DNA from: a virus | Taxonomy: Duplodnaviria > Heunggongvirae > Uroviricota > Caudoviricetes | Length of the DNA stretch: 64,000 nucleotides | IMG/VR virus record: IMGVR_UViG_2529292922_000010 | Strand: one strand, 5' to 3' | In this document: in pieces, positions 2,665-47,417 of the stretch | How the letters are laid out: each line of letters begins with the position of its first letter | Numbering within the stretch: the stretch's first letter is position 1 | Made by a program: the position numbers and the translations under genes | Notes under the pieces: model-generated | Databases searched by the model: none | What the model was told of the DNA's origin: nothing | What the model saw: the letters and a program-made list of their open reading frames with translations, nothing else

Positions 2665-3054
2665 TTAAATGACCGGACAATCATCAAATTCCCCACTTCG
2701 GGCATCATTGATGACATGAGTGATCACACCAAAAACAGCATTACTACCCGTGTAACCATCGTCATCTACTGGTAACGCCTCTTTCTTCCCGGTGCTTAAA
2801 TCCTCCAGGTGCTGGCGCGGATACTTCCTGTATCTCTTTATGCGATATTCACCCTCCATAGCGCACACAAGCAGCGAACCATCAACTGGAGTAAGCGAAG
2901 AATCAACCACCAGCAAAGCACCCTGCAATATTCCCTCACGGTGATGGCTATCAGCTGCCCGCATGAAGTAGGTTGCTGATGGATGTCTAATTATCTGCTG
3001 ATCAAGAGAAATTCGGCTTTCAACATAATCCGCCGCAGGAGAAGGGAAGCCCAT
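2665..3054 (-). CDS. humD: UmuD'-like S24 peptidase (HumD-type translesion polymerase accessory subunit)
   Basis: 129 aa beginning MGFPSPAADYVE, UmuD-type core; length corresponds to the pre-cleaved UmuD' form; SOS box 19 bp upstream. Confidence 0.85.
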   Translation of the reverse strand: MGFPSPAADYVESRISLDQQIIRHPSATYFMRAADSHHREGILQGALLVVDSSLTPVDGSLLVCAMEGEYRIKRYRKYPRQHLEDLSTGKKEALPVDDDGYTGSNAVFGVITHVINDARSGEFDDCPVI

Positions 3055-23942: not shown

Positions 23943-24217
23943 TCCACCCTGGTGTGCTGAATGTCAGATATAATCGGCATACTCAAATCACTCCTAACGA
24001 TATGAGTCATCACCAGAAAATCAGGATTAATGCGCCGGACTCTTCCCGGCTGTCACACCGAATCGCCAGGATGGTGAATCCGCAGTCCGACGCTATGAAC
24101 GGGGCTTGCACATTCCGGCTACCTGGTTTGTTGCCTGAGCTAGGGGAAAAGGTAACCCCTTTAACGTCACCAGACCGCTAACGACGCATGTGCCAGACGC
24201 CGTGTTACAACCAATTA

Positions 24218-24293
24218 TGGTGGCCCCTACCGGACTTGAACCGGTGACCGTGCGATTATGAGTCGCCAGCTCTAACCACTGAGCTAAAGGGCC
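24218..24293 (-). tRNA. tRNA-Ile (anticodon CAU, lysidine type); Met reading not excluded
   Basis: 76-nt cloverleaf ending CCA, anticodon loop CUCAUAA; very similar in form to E. coli ileX. Confidence 0.75.
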
Positions 24294-24320: not shown

Positions 24321-25148
24321 TTATTTCACCGGAACAAACGGAACAGCGGTATTACTGGTCATATACTGCGGTAATGTACCGTTCCATTTGTTGATCGCTT
24401 CCAACTCCATAACACCGGGGTTCTGGCGCAGAGCTTCACCACGTAAACGAATGGCATCAGCTTCGGCCTGGGCTTTTGTGCGAATAGCATCAGCCTGTCC
24501 GGCAGCTTCCGCGCGCAGCATGTTGGCCTCTGCTTCACGTTGTTTGACCTCTTGCTCGCGTTGCAGGGTTTTTTGGTTTGCCGTGACTTTGGCGTTAATA
24601 CTGTCAATAACTGTTGGCGGGTATTCTGGCTTACCTACATAAGAGAGGCTCATCACCTGAATGCCGATTGGCGTCATTTCTTCCTGAATGTCTTTAAGGG
24701 CTGCATCAAGCAATTCGGATTTGCCACCGTCGATAAATTTGTCGGTTGTCATTTTGCTGGCTAACCGGTTCAGAGCATCTGCAACCTTCTGGCGTAGATC
24801 GGTATCAGTAATATCATCTACACCTTTGCGATAGGTCTGAAATACCGTTGTGACTTTTGCTGGATCAACCTTGTAGGCTACGCCGATGTGGTAACCAATG
24901 GTTGTTCCGTCGCTCATCTGGAAGCTGAACGGCTCATCGTATGTCTTCATTTGCTTAAAGGTCGGGAAGATATAAACTTCAGTATTCAAGCCTGTCCAGT
25001 AGCGACCAACGCCAACTACTTCACCGATACCTTTATCATCCCCCAGCTTATTTACTTTGATCCCTACGTTACCTGGCTCTACCCGATCGCATCCGGTCAG
25101 ACATAAAGAACCCAAAATAATCGCTGCACTAATCAACGTTTTTTTCAT
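24321..25148 (-). CDS. plp: SPFH/band-7-like lipoprotein, 275 aa
   Basis: Signal peptide with lipobox LTGC; C-terminal coiled coil. Confidence 0.7.
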   Translation of the reverse strand: MKKTLISAAIILGSLCLTGCDRVEPGNVGIKVNKLGDDKGIGEVVGVGRYWTGLNTEVYIFPTFKQMKTYDEPFSFQMSDGTTIGYHIGVAYKVDPAKVTTVFQTYRKGVDDITDTDLRQKVADALNRLASKMTTDKFIDGGKSELLDAALKDIQEEMTPIGIQVMSLSYVGKPEYPPTVIDSINAKVTANQKTLQREQEVKQREAEANMLRAEAAGQADAIRTKAQAEADAIRLRGEALRQNPGVMELEAINKWNGTLPQYMTSNTAVPFVPVK

Positions 25149-25365
25149 TAATTAATTTCCTGGTTTTTTCACGAAAAAAGACTACTGCGAAAGCTGGGTA
25201 AATGAGCGCGAGAAGGACTCCCAACAATACAAGTATTGTGCTGTTAGATGAGATCATATTTGGCAAAAGCCAAACATACAGAACCAGTGACACAATCAAA
25301 CAGAGGACGGCATAAATATATAACCGCACCCATAGCGTTCGACATTTGTTCGGATTGTTCTGCAT
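25129..25365 (-). CDS. upl: Small two-TM membrane protein, 78 aa
   Basis: Overlaps plp start; position of P1 upl. Confidence 0.55.
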   Translation of the reverse strand: MQNNPNKCRTLWVRLYIYAVLCLIVSLVLYVWLLPNMISSNSTILVLLGVLLALIYPAFAVVFFREKTRKLINEKNVD

Positions 25366-25507
25366 CCTCTCACTCCATTATTTAACGAATAAAAAAGCTG
25401 CGGTGCTGGGTGCCTCCCGGTGTCCTTTGGCTGGTTATCCACCGTGGACGGGGAAACAAGGAGAAATGAATGGACTGATATAACCATTTCCCCGCGTGCG
25501 CTTAGCT

Positions 25508-25596
25508 GCATTCACCGCAACGGAAAGAGCATTCTTGGTGGACCTGTAGATTGGGATATGAACCCGTTACAGGAGAATGCTCTTACCTGTTACGTG
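25508..25596 (-). repeat. tRNA-linked hairpin element E1
   Basis: 13-bp outer stem enclosing GUAACGGGUUCAUAUCCCAAUCUAC core (T-arm-like); ends in CTTACCTGTTACGTG. Confidence 0.5.
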
Positions 25597-25768
25597 CTCC
25601 GTTTCGTGGAGCTAACGGCGGGTGATCGGGCCGCACCAGACTGGACTTATTTCAGCGTTATGCTCATGCCAGAGAATCAAACTGTGATGGTCGGTGCTGA
25701 ACTCCGACACAGGGTTGTAGCAAGCCCCGCAAAGCGCGCACTACTGTAGTTGCGGCACATCAGCCTGT

Positions 25769-25873
25769 GCATTCACCACAATGTTGAGAACACTGGTTGT
25801 CACGCTGCAACGCAACATTTATTCGTAGATTGGGATATGACCCCGTTACGCCAGTGTTCTCAACGTTGTAGTG
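25769..25873 (-). repeat. tRNA-linked hairpin element E2
   Basis: Different 14-bp outer stem (TTGAGAACACTGG/CCAGTGTTCTCAA) around the same core as E1. Confidence 0.5.
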
Positions 25874-26003
25874 CCGGTTACGGTTCCGGCCAGGCCTCTT
25901 CCTCAACGGGGTGTTCTCCATACGGACTACCGTTTATTGGTCGTTCCTGCGGTTTATGTTGTGAAGCCAGATGCTTATCTTCTGGTTGCTTCAAAGAGCT
26001 GCA

Positions 26004-26085
26004 CTTCATCACAACGGTAAGAGCACTCGATGCATTTAAGCCAAGCCCCATAAGGGAGAATGCCCTTACCTGTTGTGTTGTGATG
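26004..26085 (-). repeat. tRNA-linked hairpin element E3
   Basis: CATCACAACGGTAAG...CTTACCTGTTGTGTTGTGATG stem; different loop, no T-arm core. Confidence 0.45.
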
Positions 26086-26197
26086 ACCGGTGCTGATCTC
26101 CGGCTTGCGGTTATTTCAGACTCTCACGGGCGTTTAATTGCCCCGCCGAACAGCTCTTTTCCGCAATAGCTGCAATGTCTTTCGCGCATCAGCCTGC

Positions 26198-26292
26198 GCA
26201 TTCATCACAACGGTAAGGGTACTTCGTAGGGATTCGAACCCTCTGCCAAGCTCGGCGATCTCCGACGTCGCAAAATACCCTTACCTGTTGTG
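26198..26292 (-). repeat. tRNA-linked hairpin element E4 (tRNA-like, non-canonical)
   Basis: 10-bp stem GGTAAGGGTA/TACCCTTACC around AGGGTTCGAATCCCT (canonical T-loop); abuts 3' end of tRNA-Thr; does not fold as full cloverleaf. Confidence 0.5.
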
Positions 26293-26293
26293 C

Positions 26294-26369
26294 TGGTGCC
26301 GATTAACGGACTCGAACCGCTGACATCCTGCTTACAAGGCAGGCGCTCTACCAACTGAGCTAAACCGGC
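26294..26369 (-). tRNA. tRNA-Thr (anticodon UGU)
   Basis: 76 nt, canonical acceptor/D/T arms, ends CCA. Confidence 0.8.
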
Positions 26370-26371
26370 AT

Positions 26372-26447
26372 TGGCGATGGTGGATGGATTTGAACCATCG
26401 ACCCGTTGATTAACAGTCAACCGCTCTAACCGCTGAGCTACACCATC
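26372..26447 (-). tRNA. tRNA-Asn (anticodon GUU)
   Basis: 76 nt, 7-bp acceptor stem, ends CCA; 2 nt upstream of tRNA-Thr. Confidence 0.8.
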
Positions 26448-26912
26448 ACTTGCCGGGTACGTCTCCGGCGAGGGCTTCCACCTCCGTATGCTTTTCGGCG
26501 CACCGCGCCCTAGCTGCAATTCGGTAACAGGGGATGCACAACCCTGGCTTCCAGCGTGATTAGCGCCTTCAGCATGACGGGATATACCCGTAAATTCGTG
26601 GAACTGTACCCAAAGTGCTGTTAAGCACCGCTGTTACGCTGAAAAGAAGACGCAACAGGAAAGGACGCTGACCAACAGATGGCCCCTTCTCGTTCATCTG
26701 GTTAATCACACCAGCGCCCTTACCTGTTGTGCCTCCCCGTTCCCTAATACACAGACGGGGACACTCTGCGGTCGATTTTTTGACGGGGGACGACTCATAC
26801 CCCGTGGCGTCTGGCTTCTTAGGCCGCTACCATCATCAGATCATCGTTTGCATTTACTTTAATGGTCAGTTTTTAAACCGCCGCAAAGTCGCTAACCATG
26901 ACGAAAACCCTG

Positions 26913-26940
26913 AAAAAAAATGCCCACCCGAAGATGGGCA
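26913..26940 (-). terminator. Rho-independent terminator downstream of dmt
   Basis: Minus strand TGCCCA-loop-TGGGCA followed by U8. Confidence 0.6.
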
Positions 26941-27105
26941 AACTGGAAGCTCGTAACGCACTTCGGTGTTGCCACTTAGGCGTATGGTCAACCTGGCAAC
27001 TCGGCGTCATGATGGGGAAGGAGTCACTACCCCGCCATACTTGCCGCCGCGCCTGTCGCGGCTAACAGCTAAATCGCTCTATAAATCACGATTCATTGAG
27101 GCGAT

Positions 27106-27122
27106 ATTACACTAATAAATTT
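27106..27122 (+). promoter_or_regulatory. C1-repressor operator-like site (partner of overlapping pair)
   Basis: ATTACACTAATAAATTT (15/17); overlaps the minus-strand site by 6 bp. Confidence 0.5.
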
Positions 27123-27133
27123 ATTAGAGCAAT
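27117..27133 (-). promoter_or_regulatory. C1-repressor operator-like site, perfect consensus
   Basis: Minus strand ATTGCTCTAATAAATTT (17/17); overlaps dmt stop codon; faces the tRNA-ban block. Confidence 0.65.
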
Positions 27134-43374: not shown

Positions 43375-43530
43375 TTACCTTTCAGATTCGTAGGCTGTGA
43401 AGACAGTGACCTCCGTCTGGCCGGTTCGGATTCGTACCTCGCAGAGGTCTTTCCTCGTTACCAGTGCCGTCACAATGACGGTTAAACAGATGACGATCAG
43501 AGCGATTAACATCGCTTTTTGCTGCTTCAT
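43375..43530 (-). CDS. hok: Hok/Gef-family type I toxin
   Basis: 51 aa MKQQKAMLIALIVICLTVIVTALVTRKDLCEVRIRTGQTEVTVFTAYESER; AAGGAG RBS; overlapping mok-like frame 43382..43588. Confidence 0.85.
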   Translation of the reverse strand: MKQQKAMLIALIVICLTVIVTALVTRKDLCEVRIRTGQTEVTVFTAYESER

Positions 43531-43711
43531 AGCCTGCTTCTCCTTGACCTTTTGGTCGGTAAGAGGCTAATCTACGTATGCTAAGCATAGATGTGGCCTC
43601 AGATTAATGTTAAGCGTCTTGCAGGACGCGTAATGTTATCTGGGGCTTTCTTCTATCTGCTTTTCGGGTAATGCCTGAAGCAGATAGCCTCAAGCACCCG
43701 CAACGATTGTA

Positions 43712-47103: not shown

Positions 47104-47417
47104 AGTTACGGCCTCACAATCAGGTTTAACAACCTGCTACCCGCTGCTAAACAGGTGGCAGGACGTGACGGGGTTAGCAGACTGGCGATTGTGAAACCAG
47201 CAGGCCGAAGCCTCCCCATCACGCCCCACCATAATTTGGGCGTAACGCGGTTTTACGGACACAAAAATACCGCAATATCGGATATCTGCGGCTGTCCGCA
47301 CAATCATTCAGGCTGCTAAACCCGGTCGCAGAATTTGCTACGACGGCGGAACTATAAGCCTGAACGATTAAAAGGTCAATATGATGCGAAAAGATAGCAT
47401 TCGCGACTTAAAAATAC

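Follow-up and report, generated by a model that had tools for sequence, protein, structure and literature searches.

In several phages, host RNase III cuts early transcripts at hairpins of about two helical turns that carry an internal mismatch or loop, e.g., at the early sites of T7 and T3 (R0.3 to R1.3) and at the sites in the N leader and in sib of lambda; such sites occur in several copies with sequence in common, each between two units of one polycistronic early RNA. Structured RNAs other than tRNAs occur in the tRNA cluster of phage T4, where species 1 and species 2, both of unknown function, are co-transcribed with the tRNAs and released by host processing enzymes. In the prophage Qin of Escherichia coli K-12, the small RNA DicF is cut from the dicBF transcript, and the 5' end of its 190-nucleotide (nt) precursor, which primer extension has located, depends on RNase III (PMC10448788, after Faubladier et al. 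1990). Here we describe five hairpins, E1 to E5, encoded on the minus strand beside tRNA genes in a 64,000-nt stretch of the Caudoviricetes record IMGVR_UViG_2529292922_000010; this whole stretch is termed the window in the following. Judged by model scores and conserved pairing, E1 to E5 are members of one unannotated family of structured RNA hairpins in P1-type and lambda-type phages, and with a probability of roughly 60% we regard them as interchangeable RNase III processing hairpins that would punctuate the leader of the ban operon.

Kinship with the dicBF leader of Qin

The 1.77 kilobases (kb) around the elements are 98.5% identical to phage RCS47 and ~98% identical to P1; the window belongs to a phage of the P1 type. 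According to the records of P1 and P7, a bivalent C1 operator and the promoter P1ban are located at the dmt end of the element region, and tRNA-Asn, tRNA-Thr, trnI and ban lie downstream of P1ban on the same strand. Because of this order, we take the minus strand from 27123 down to 25366 to be the untranslated leader of the C1-controlled ban operon. Inside the leader region no sigma-70-like promoter was found.

A covariance model, R1, was built from 16 elements of lambdoid phages only and used to scan all 64 kb of the window unfiltered. The five top loci were, in this order, E1, E2, E5, E4 and E3 (Table 1), and no other locus in the window fell below an E-value of 0.1. The same model matches a hairpin of K-12 Qin at NC_000913.3 1649172-1649257 (20.9 bits, E 3e-5). 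The outer stem of this hairpin, formed by the arms CCAUAACGCGAAAGCGCAUGG and CGUGCGCUUCCGGUUGUGG, is homologous to that of the window elements, and its apical core, UGGUUCAUAGAUAGCC, is a decayed copy. A length of 190 nt, measured upstream from the 3' end of DicF, reaches into the 3' arm CGUGCGCUUCCGGUUGUGG. The likeness includes the surroundings, as both loci are leaders of repressor-controlled early operons with small RNAs adjoining. The P1 "dicF-like region" is homologous to the DicF 5' leader and the stretch downstream of E1 to the dicF-dicB spacer; like this stretch (Table 1), its K-12 counterpart matches the Rfam family STnc100 below threshold (34.1 bits). In terms of homology, the ban leader is an expanded leader of the dicBF type in which tRNAs have taken the position of DicF. 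The two differ in that cleavage has been shown for the Qin copy only and that the P1 hairpins are five in number and flank tRNAs instead of DicF. The published work on dicBF describes neither the hairpin family nor its apical domain.

The segment annotated in P1 as "dicF-like region" is closed by the terminator ending at 26943, and this one, at 26921-26943, is the sole strong minus-strand terminator in the leader. As this terminator is situated only ~190 nt past Pban, transcription of 26913-27123 should, unless it reads through, give rise to a short RNA with homology to the 5' leader of DicF. None of the elements E1 to E5 is followed by a U-run on the minus strand, as would be typical of intrinsic terminators, and the elements were for this reason not taken as terminators.

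Several features that characterize RNase III sites are found in all five elements, namely a stem of ~20 base pairs (bp), a sense-strand location that separates units of a polycistronic transcript and homology to a hairpin with a mapped cut. As repeated mismatch-bearing hairpins of about two turns between transcript units, they resemble the sites of T7, T3 and lambda. On the other hand, there is no sequence relationship to these sites: R1 scores at most 11 bits in the lambda PL region, and the RNase III site of the lambda N leader, considered as a possible relative, gave no model match. In addition, T7 sites possess neither a three-way junction nor a tRNA-like apex and lie between mRNAs and not at the 3' ends of tRNAs. 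The T4 species 1 and 2 RNAs are similar to the elements as structured non-tRNA units inside a phage tRNA cluster and differ in being released by RNase P and tRNA-type processing. The put antitermination RNAs of HK022 (putL/putR) were rejected as relatives, since R1 reaches at most 13 bits in the HK022 early region. A first-pass annotation of the window, made from the letters alone, had offered several functions for four of the hairpins, among which processing signals are now the best supported.

We propose the following course of events. In the minus-strand operon transcript, each element would fold into a stem of ~20 bp with one conserved mismatch or bulge, and this stem would be cut by host RNase III. 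The cuts would part tRNA-Thr, tRNA-Asn, the decayed tRNA units, the RNA of a 137-nt spacer and, further downstream, the mRNA with the membrane protein genes, trnI and ban from each other; the tRNA would keep a trailer of roughly 10 nt that could be trimmed by host exonucleases. Such cuts would presumably be of importance for tRNA or Ban expression. The conserved stem bases may double as recombination points, and as a consequence hairpin types and tRNA cassettes would be swapped, duplicated and deleted between relatives.

A number of points weigh against processing by RNase III. The link to the enzyme depends on one mapped site, to which the outer stems are homologous and at which the cut itself was placed from the length of the 190-nt product, i.e., to ~5 nt. 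A plain RNase III site would need neither a three-way junction nor a conserved core of 19 nt, and the 3' trailers of E. coli tRNAs are normally handled by RNase E, not by RNase III. The R1 scores of E3, E4, E5 and the K-12 hairpin (18-22 bits) stem mostly from the outer stem, and E4 and E5 score nearly as high on the opposite strand. Furthermore, a deletion in the related phage SJ46 that extends from the E2 core to the E1 core fuses the cores and destroys both outer stems, phage Ro157c2YLVW (Ro157 in the following) lacks 13 nt of the E1 core and P1 lacks E3; as some relatives have lost elements without obvious harm, single copies are dispensable.

Folding, pairing and distribution of the family

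Folding energies of the minus-strand RNA were compared with those of 200 dinucleotide shuffles each (Table 1). None of the 200 shuffles reached the energies of E1 to E4, and E5 is the most stable element of the five. The spacers between E1 and E4 fold no better than their shuffles (z +0.30, +0.56 and +0.36), and E1 to E4 all persist in the minimum-energy fold of the entire 921-nt stretch. In all five elements the minus strand out-folds the plus strand, and in each case the R1 score on the minus strand is equal to or higher than that on the plus strand. The outer stems comprise 19-23 bp and have one mismatch or one bulged base each. A repeat search recovered the shared flanks and a 25-nt core common to E1 and E2 as repeat families D1, D3 and D6 and the self-complementary arms as I1, I4 and I12.

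The positions that the first-pass annotation had given for E1 to E4 are confirmed, and its view of the elements as RNA features of the transcribed strand is borne out by strand-biased folding and model scores. Other parts of it have to be revised. The flanks that it listed as shared fit E1, E3, E4 and E5 but not E2, where the right flank reads CTCAACGTTGTAGTG instead of CTTACCTGTTGTG, and they are not parts separate from the hairpins but the base of each stem. A copy of the 3' flank at 26717-26731, seen as an orphan, is in fact the 5' arm of the fifth member, E5, and pairs with 26648-26670; the complete arms of E5 extend over 26648-26670 and 26712-26734 (inverted repeat I2).

The fold of the family is a three-way junction. 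It consists of a 20-bp outer stem, P1, in which one internal mismatch is conserved, an arm P2 that ends in GGG-CUCAUAA-CCC in the lambdoid form, and a variable hairpin P3. In E1, the P2 arm CCUGUA/UACAGG bears the hairpin GGG-UUCAUAU-CCC and P3 has shrunk to a linker, UCCACCA. This linker was considered as a tRNA 3' end, an idea that was dropped since it aligns with a remnant of the lambdoid P3 hairpin, GCGGCUGCCACCGC. In E2, the P2 arm is CGUA/UACG and bears GGG-GUCAUAU-CCC, and P3 is present as the hairpin GUUGCGUUGCAGCGUGAC. The first base of E4 is the base after the CCA end of tRNA-Thr, and its apex combines one hairpin with a canonical T-arm (26228-26242) in the P3 position. The earlier statements that E4 bears such an arm and abuts the tRNA-Thr 3' end are correct, and so is the one that it forms no cloverleaf, as neither ARAGORN nor the Rfam tRNA model calls it as a tRNA. 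Among lambdoid elements (e.g., L002 2340-2450, minus strand), the U-run of the upstream terminator can pair with a conserved GGAGAA after the 3' arm; this pairing makes the stem longer and hides a Shine-Dalgarno-like sequence that closely precedes the following open reading frame (ORF; phrog_204, function unknown). The P3 loops of the lambdoid copies L019, L038, L077, L008 and L026 have a recurring UUCCUAA or CUCCUAA in a hairpin that is otherwise variable.

To assess pairing, elements were collected through their 3' arm, with the core left out of account, and aligned to the model, which yielded an independent set of 73 distinct sequences. Model-based alignments were used as MAFFT, applied to all element types, misaligned the 3' halves. 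Of the paired cells in this set, 94.7% hold a pair, compared with 35-50% when the partners are slid, and both sides have changed in 128 cells vs. 2-14 in the slid controls. None of 500 shuffles reached the covariation score of the set. When the P1-type members and L064 are added, both-side changes occur in 22 of 34 pairs as opposed to 5-9 in slid controls. As the alignments were fitted to the model and the sequences are related, these covariation figures are supportive and not a formal proof. Model pair 11 is non-standard in 73/73 sequences, and the constancy of this mismatch argues for design. In E5 of SJ46 and D6, one neighbouring C-G pair is replaced by U-A, and the mismatch U.U has become C.A, which is still unpaired. 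Most positions of the outer stem vary between E1, E2, L064 and the lambdoid types, yet each of these stems is self-complementary. The assumption that structure rather than sequence is conserved has therefore withstood these comparisons. Relatives do not present the elements as decayed tRNA duplicates devoid of conserved pairing, the finding that according to the first-pass annotation would have spoken against functional RNAs; pairing is conserved and covaries in them.

These results also bear on the idea that the elements act as DNA, either as miniature inverted-repeat mobile elements or as recombination sequences at module boundaries. Terminal inverted repeats, CACAACAGGTAAG and CTTACC(T)GTTGTG, are indeed common to several copies, deletions and swaps in the relatives have their end points in conserved arms or cores, and the same modules occur across unrelated phage groups. 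However, G.U pairs are frequent on the transcribed strand and correspond to C.A mismatches on the other, and R1 scores are asymmetric, with 104 bits for lambdoid members vs. 41 bits on their opposite strand and 39 vs. 10 bits for E1. The copies seen are all oriented alike with respect to transcription, there is no transposase nearby, and no target duplications were seen, although these were not searched for systematically. Arms that differ and are nevertheless each self-complementary imply selection on pairing and not on an end sequence bound by a protein, and recombination in the arms more plausibly follows from the arms being conserved. A role at the DNA level is consequently given very little weight.

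The family is neither confined to the tRNA operon nor a peculiarity of P1; the same hairpins occur in the early-left leaders of lambdoid prophages beside DicF-type small RNAs. In the mEp460 leader, an element with the E1/E2 core directly follows a terminator-bearing segment in the position of DicF. This segment shares UUUGGCGGUA-CAGUUU and the terminator with DicF but misses the Rfam DicF model at E-values up to 1, for which reason it was rejected as a true DicF and is called only a DicF-position, small RNA-like segment. The core pattern is present in at least 120 IMG/VR contigs. The lambdoid form is found in 2492 of 5426 complete E. coli genomes (46%), with up to five copies each, and is at least 95% identical in 2491 E. 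coli records; the copies in E. coli genomes lie under no annotation or under "hypothetical protein". A scan of genome contigs with a 15-base core pattern yielded mostly chance matches in unrelated phyla and served as a control for specificity: among 80 unrelated genomic loci with a chance core 15-mer, only three, from E. coli, Enterobacter and Citrobacter, match R1.

Rfam 15 was searched in gathering and E-value modes with the window, mEp460 and K-12, and no family was assigned to the elements at the gathering score. E1 to E5 gave only spurious sub-threshold matches to microRNA precursors, and the lambdoid copy gave none at E-values up to 1. The only match to the bacterial Y RNA YrlA (25.6 bits, gathering score 69) covers two true tRNAs and is situated on no element. 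A literature search by sequence string found the element sequences in none of the papers of the library searched.

Table 1. Positions and properties of features in the ban leader and its vicinity (window coordinates; fold values and R1 scores refer to the minus strand, R1 scores of the plus strand follow after "plus")
Feature	Position	Strand	Fold (kcal/mol; z)	R1	Remarks
E1	25515..25595	-	-35.9; z -4.3	39.3 bits, E 2e-10; plus 9.6 bits	outer stem ~20 bp, U.U mismatch, bulged A
Anticodon-arm-like hairpin of E1, RNA GGGUUCAUAUCCC	25553..25565	-			CAU in anticodon position; read from sequence
E2	25775..25872	-	-49.6; z -5.6	32.8 bits, E 1.5e-8; plus 20.3 bits	outer stem 22-23 bp of different sequence
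Anticodon-arm-like hairpin of E2, RNA GGGGUCAUAUCCC	25832..25844	-			repeat family D6
E3	26009..26078	-	-37.8; z -4.2	18.2 bits, E 2.8e-4; plus 11.6 bits	family outer stem, short different apex
E4	26205..26293	-	-44.1; z -4.4	20.4 bits, E 6e-5	family outer stem
E5	26650..26732	-	-50.5; z -6.15	22.4 bits, E 1.6e-5	fifth member, upstream of tRNA-Asn
Spacer of 137 nt between E4 and E3	26076..26212	-			absent from P1, P7, D6 and SJ46
Spacer upstream of E1	25597..25712	-	z +0.30		patchy alignment with tRNA-Ser(UGA) of P7 and D6
Sequence just upstream of E2, GGCCGGAACCGUAACCGGCA	25873..25900	-			resembles the tRNA-Thr 3' end that precedes E2-type elements (L023, L076, L078)
Counterparts of P1 upl and plp	25420-25749 and 25750-26169	+			ORFs over the hairpin array
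Segment downstream of E1	25399..25519	-			homologue of the Qin dicF-dicB intergenic region; Rfam STnc100 29.1 bits, gathering score 47
tRNA-Thr (UGU)	26294..26369	-			ARAGORN, Rfam; CCA end abuts E4
tRNA-Asn (GUU)	26372..26447	-			ARAGORN, Rfam
CAU tRNA (ARAGORN: Met(CAU))	24218-24293	-			ARAGORN, Rfam
Strong intrinsic terminator	26913..26943	-			stem and U8; ~190 nt downstream of Pban

An apex resembling the initiator tRNA anticodon arm

The core of E1 and E2 had been described as T-arm-like and as enclosed by outer stems that differ between the two elements and are each self-complementary. The pairing of the stems holds true, while the core is not T-arm-like but resides in the arm equivalent to an anticodon arm. 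The lambdoid hairpin GGGCUCAUAACCC is identical in 13/13 positions to the anticodon stem-loop of E. coli tRNAfMet (GGG-CUCAUAA-CCC), and E1 and E2 retain the GGG/CCC stem, U33, CAU and A37. Three consecutive G-C pairs are typical of initiator tRNA. In the sample drawn without regard to the core, these three pairs and the bases in anticodon position show the highest conservation within the loop, with values of 100%, 96% and 99% for C, A and U, respectively, and of 85-93% for the flanking loop positions.

The elements are not recognized by tRNA models. Compared with the tRNAfMet anticodon arm, their stem has 3 bp instead of 5, and they have no cloverleaf, D-arm or CCA acceptor end. In the window ARAGORN finds only Met(CAU), Thr and Asn, cmscan at E-values up to 10 gave no tRNA match on E1 to E5, and the Rfam tRNA model does not match the lambdoid element either. 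A check of the elements with Infernal and Rfam, which the first-pass annotation had suggested, thus returned no family or tRNA match at E-values up to 10 beyond spurious microRNA-type hits. The tRNA-like arms are distributed over different elements: the T-arm occurs in E4 and the anticodon-arm look-alike in E1 and E2, none of E1 to E5 has both, and E3, E4 and E5 are without the E1/E2 core. An integration site of the attP type within a tRNA gene was rejected as an explanation, as the sequence after CCC is AAUCC and that in tRNAfMet is GAAG.

The presence of an initiator anticodon-arm look-alike at the apex of E1 and E2 is beyond what simple processing explains. The apex may be part of a trans-acting small RNA of ~60-70 nt that would be released by RNase III or another nuclease and titrate a reader of the initiator arm. 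We consider this unlikely, even though the full identity of the lambdoid hairpin with the tRNAfMet stem-loop and the high conservation of CAU and the G-C pairs speak for it. Besides, the core is kept across stems of almost no common sequence (E1, E2, L064 and the lambdoid types), one variant has GUG/CAC instead of GGG/CCC, with both bases of the middle stem pair changed, and at least one core-bearing copy is present in six out of six P1-type genomes compared, even in SJ46, where it is without an outer stem. The toxins VapC and MvpT reportedly cleave tRNAfMet in its anticodon arm. Against such a role stand the anticodon-like stem of only 3 bp before an internal loop, the minority of copies with C in place of the universal U33 or with a lost CAU (loops CCCUAA and CCCACCA), the missing match to the Rfam tRNA model and the lack of the core in E3, E4 and E5. 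That the RNA in question is a three-way-junction RNA of ~60-70 nt, released from E1/E2-type hairpins by RNase III itself and active in trans as a decoy of, or competitor for, an initiator-arm reader is quite unlikely; candidates for the reader would be MetRS, the P site of the 30S subunit together with IF3, and a VapC/MvpT-type toxin that cleaves tRNAfMet. A trans-acting small RNA is compatible with processing by RNase III and not exclusive of it.

A further trans-acting function was considered on account of the 5' arms, which contain CACAACA, the consensus target of the R1 seed of the small RNA GcvB. The left flank of E3, ACAACACAACA (26065-26090, minus strand), is an 11-nt perfect complement of this seed, and GcvB itself has GUUGUGAUG in common with the 3' arms of E3 and E4. 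A phage-encoded sponge of GcvB is known in AgvB, a free-standing anti-sRNA of 51-60 nt with a terminator that is located 3' of PR' (PMC4104026). The elements share the CACAACA target motif with AgvB and differ from it in that AgvB is a free-standing small RNA at a different kind of locus. A sponge function was rejected, as the predicted duplex energies are no better than those of shuffled arms and the motif is buried in the duplex; the resemblances to GcvB are probably a chance effect of C/A-rich and G/U-rich arms.

Cassettes, spacers and reading frames in related phages

The leaders of the window, P1, Ro157, SJ46, P7 and D6 were aligned. The slot directly after the CCA end of tRNA-Thr is occupied by E4 in the window, P1, SJ46 and D6 and by E3 in Ro157 and P7. 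In other P1-like contigs it holds an E2-type (L023, L076, L078) or an E1-type hairpin (L108), from which it follows that any of the four hairpin types E1 to E4 can adjoin the CCA end. At the place of E1 in the window, P7 and D6 contain an intact gene for tRNA-Ser(UGA), after which comes another family hairpin. This tRNA (L005 and L006 1289-1375, minus strand), positioned between the E2 and E1 slots, is of class II and has an encoded CCA; in the D6 record its amino acid was left unassigned by tRNAscan-SE. In Ro157 and several IMG/VR contigs, a tRNA-Tyr is inserted between Asn and Thr, and in L076 a tRNA-Arg(UCU) replaces Asn.

In the window and RCS47, tRNA-Thr is followed by E4, a 137-nt spacer and E3. 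The spacer is 96-99% identical in most of the lambdoid phages listed (mEp460 and Stx phages) and 90% identical in one, and there it is located in the leader left of the repressor gene, again between two hairpins of the family. The spacer itself has no thermodynamic structure signal (z +0.36). Family hairpins bracket it in P1-type and lambdoid leaders alike, and cuts in these would set it free as an RNA of its own.

Upstream of E1, the spacer at 25597..25712 is probably a decayed tRNA gene, and upstream of E2 the sequence at 25873..25900 is a probable tRNA remnant, judged by their resemblance to tRNA sequences of the relatives (Table 1); as far as can be recognized from such resemblances, tRNA debris sits in these spacers and not in the hairpins. 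The T-arm motif of E4, GGATTCGAACC, lies precisely 78 nt from the T-arm of tRNA-Thr and 156 nt from that of tRNA-Asn (repeat family D8), and because of this 78-nt register with the tRNA array the family may descend from tRNA-like units. The exact register, the resemblance of the two spacers to decayed tRNA genes, the gain and loss of whole cassettes among relatives and the varying tRNA content of P1-like contigs (Asn or Arg, Tyr, Thr, Ser) would also be in line with a more radical view, according to which the elements themselves are non-functional debris, i.e., decayed tRNA genes or duplicated fragments in a region under no selection. We attach little probability to it. Compensatory changes are found between P1-type and lambdoid phages, which otherwise share little here, and a 20-bp stem is part of no tRNA; ARAGORN and the Rfam tRNA model miss the elements even at E-values up to 10. 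The lambdoid form, moreover, is at least 95% identical in 2491 E. coli records and present in 2492 genomes, and it is the spacers, the real debris, that are without a structure signal.

The P1 record (L001 1659-2228) shows upl and plp as plus-strand ORFs on top of the elements, and the region could accordingly be taken as protein-coding. Apart from this annotation, the ORF at 25420-25749 matches a PHROG of unknown function, itself built from the same ORF calls in P1-like phages. No Pfam matches were obtained for the two ORFs, and plp overlaps tRNA-Thr on the opposite strand. Deletions of 260 nt and 13 nt and exchanges of cassettes have disrupted or remade the ORFs among the relatives; the P7 and D6 records list no genes of this kind, and the conserved features are base pairs of the other strand. 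Coding by this region is thus hardly conceivable, and upl and plp are probably not genes. The name upl had also been attached to 25129-25365 on the minus strand in the first-pass annotation. This label is wrong, as the 78-aa ORF there corresponds to a small membrane protein of the RCS47 type. Together with a 275-aa SPFH/Band-7 lipoprotein, this 78-aa membrane protein (24321-25365, minus strand) replaces tciA-tciB-tciC of P1, and the same arrangement is present in RCS47 and Ro157.

Just after trnI, the sequence UUGGUUGUAACACGGCGUCUGGCAC at 24190-24217 (minus strand) has a near-unchanged copy at the start of the mEp460 early-left leader (L002 about 2850-2885, minus strand), which makes it a further module common to the P1 ban operon and lambdoid leaders. 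Elsewhere in the window, Rfam reports matches above threshold on the minus strand at 43525-43699, 47151-47236 and 47305-47357 to sok antitoxin RNA, C4 antisense RNA and the C4 a1/b1 targets; those to C4 are expected features of P1 immunity (immI).

Provided that E1 to E5 are RNase III processing hairpins, ~900 nt of P1 annotated since 2004 as hypothetical upl and plp would consist of processing hairpins and tRNA remnants, and the known RNase III site of dicBF would be one member of a large family without an Rfam entry, present in nearly half of the complete E. coli genomes and in phages of Enterobacter, Citrobacter, Klebsiella and Salmonella. The family would provide temperate phages with a mechanism for cutting tRNAs and small RNAs such as DicF from long early transcripts and would account for the easy exchange of tRNA cassettes in P1-type phages. 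The initiator anticodon-arm look-alike would offer a testable lead to RNA mimicry in phage-host conflict, and, should a decoy be made from it, phages and prophages would gain a hold on translation initiation or protection from a defence directed at initiator tRNA.

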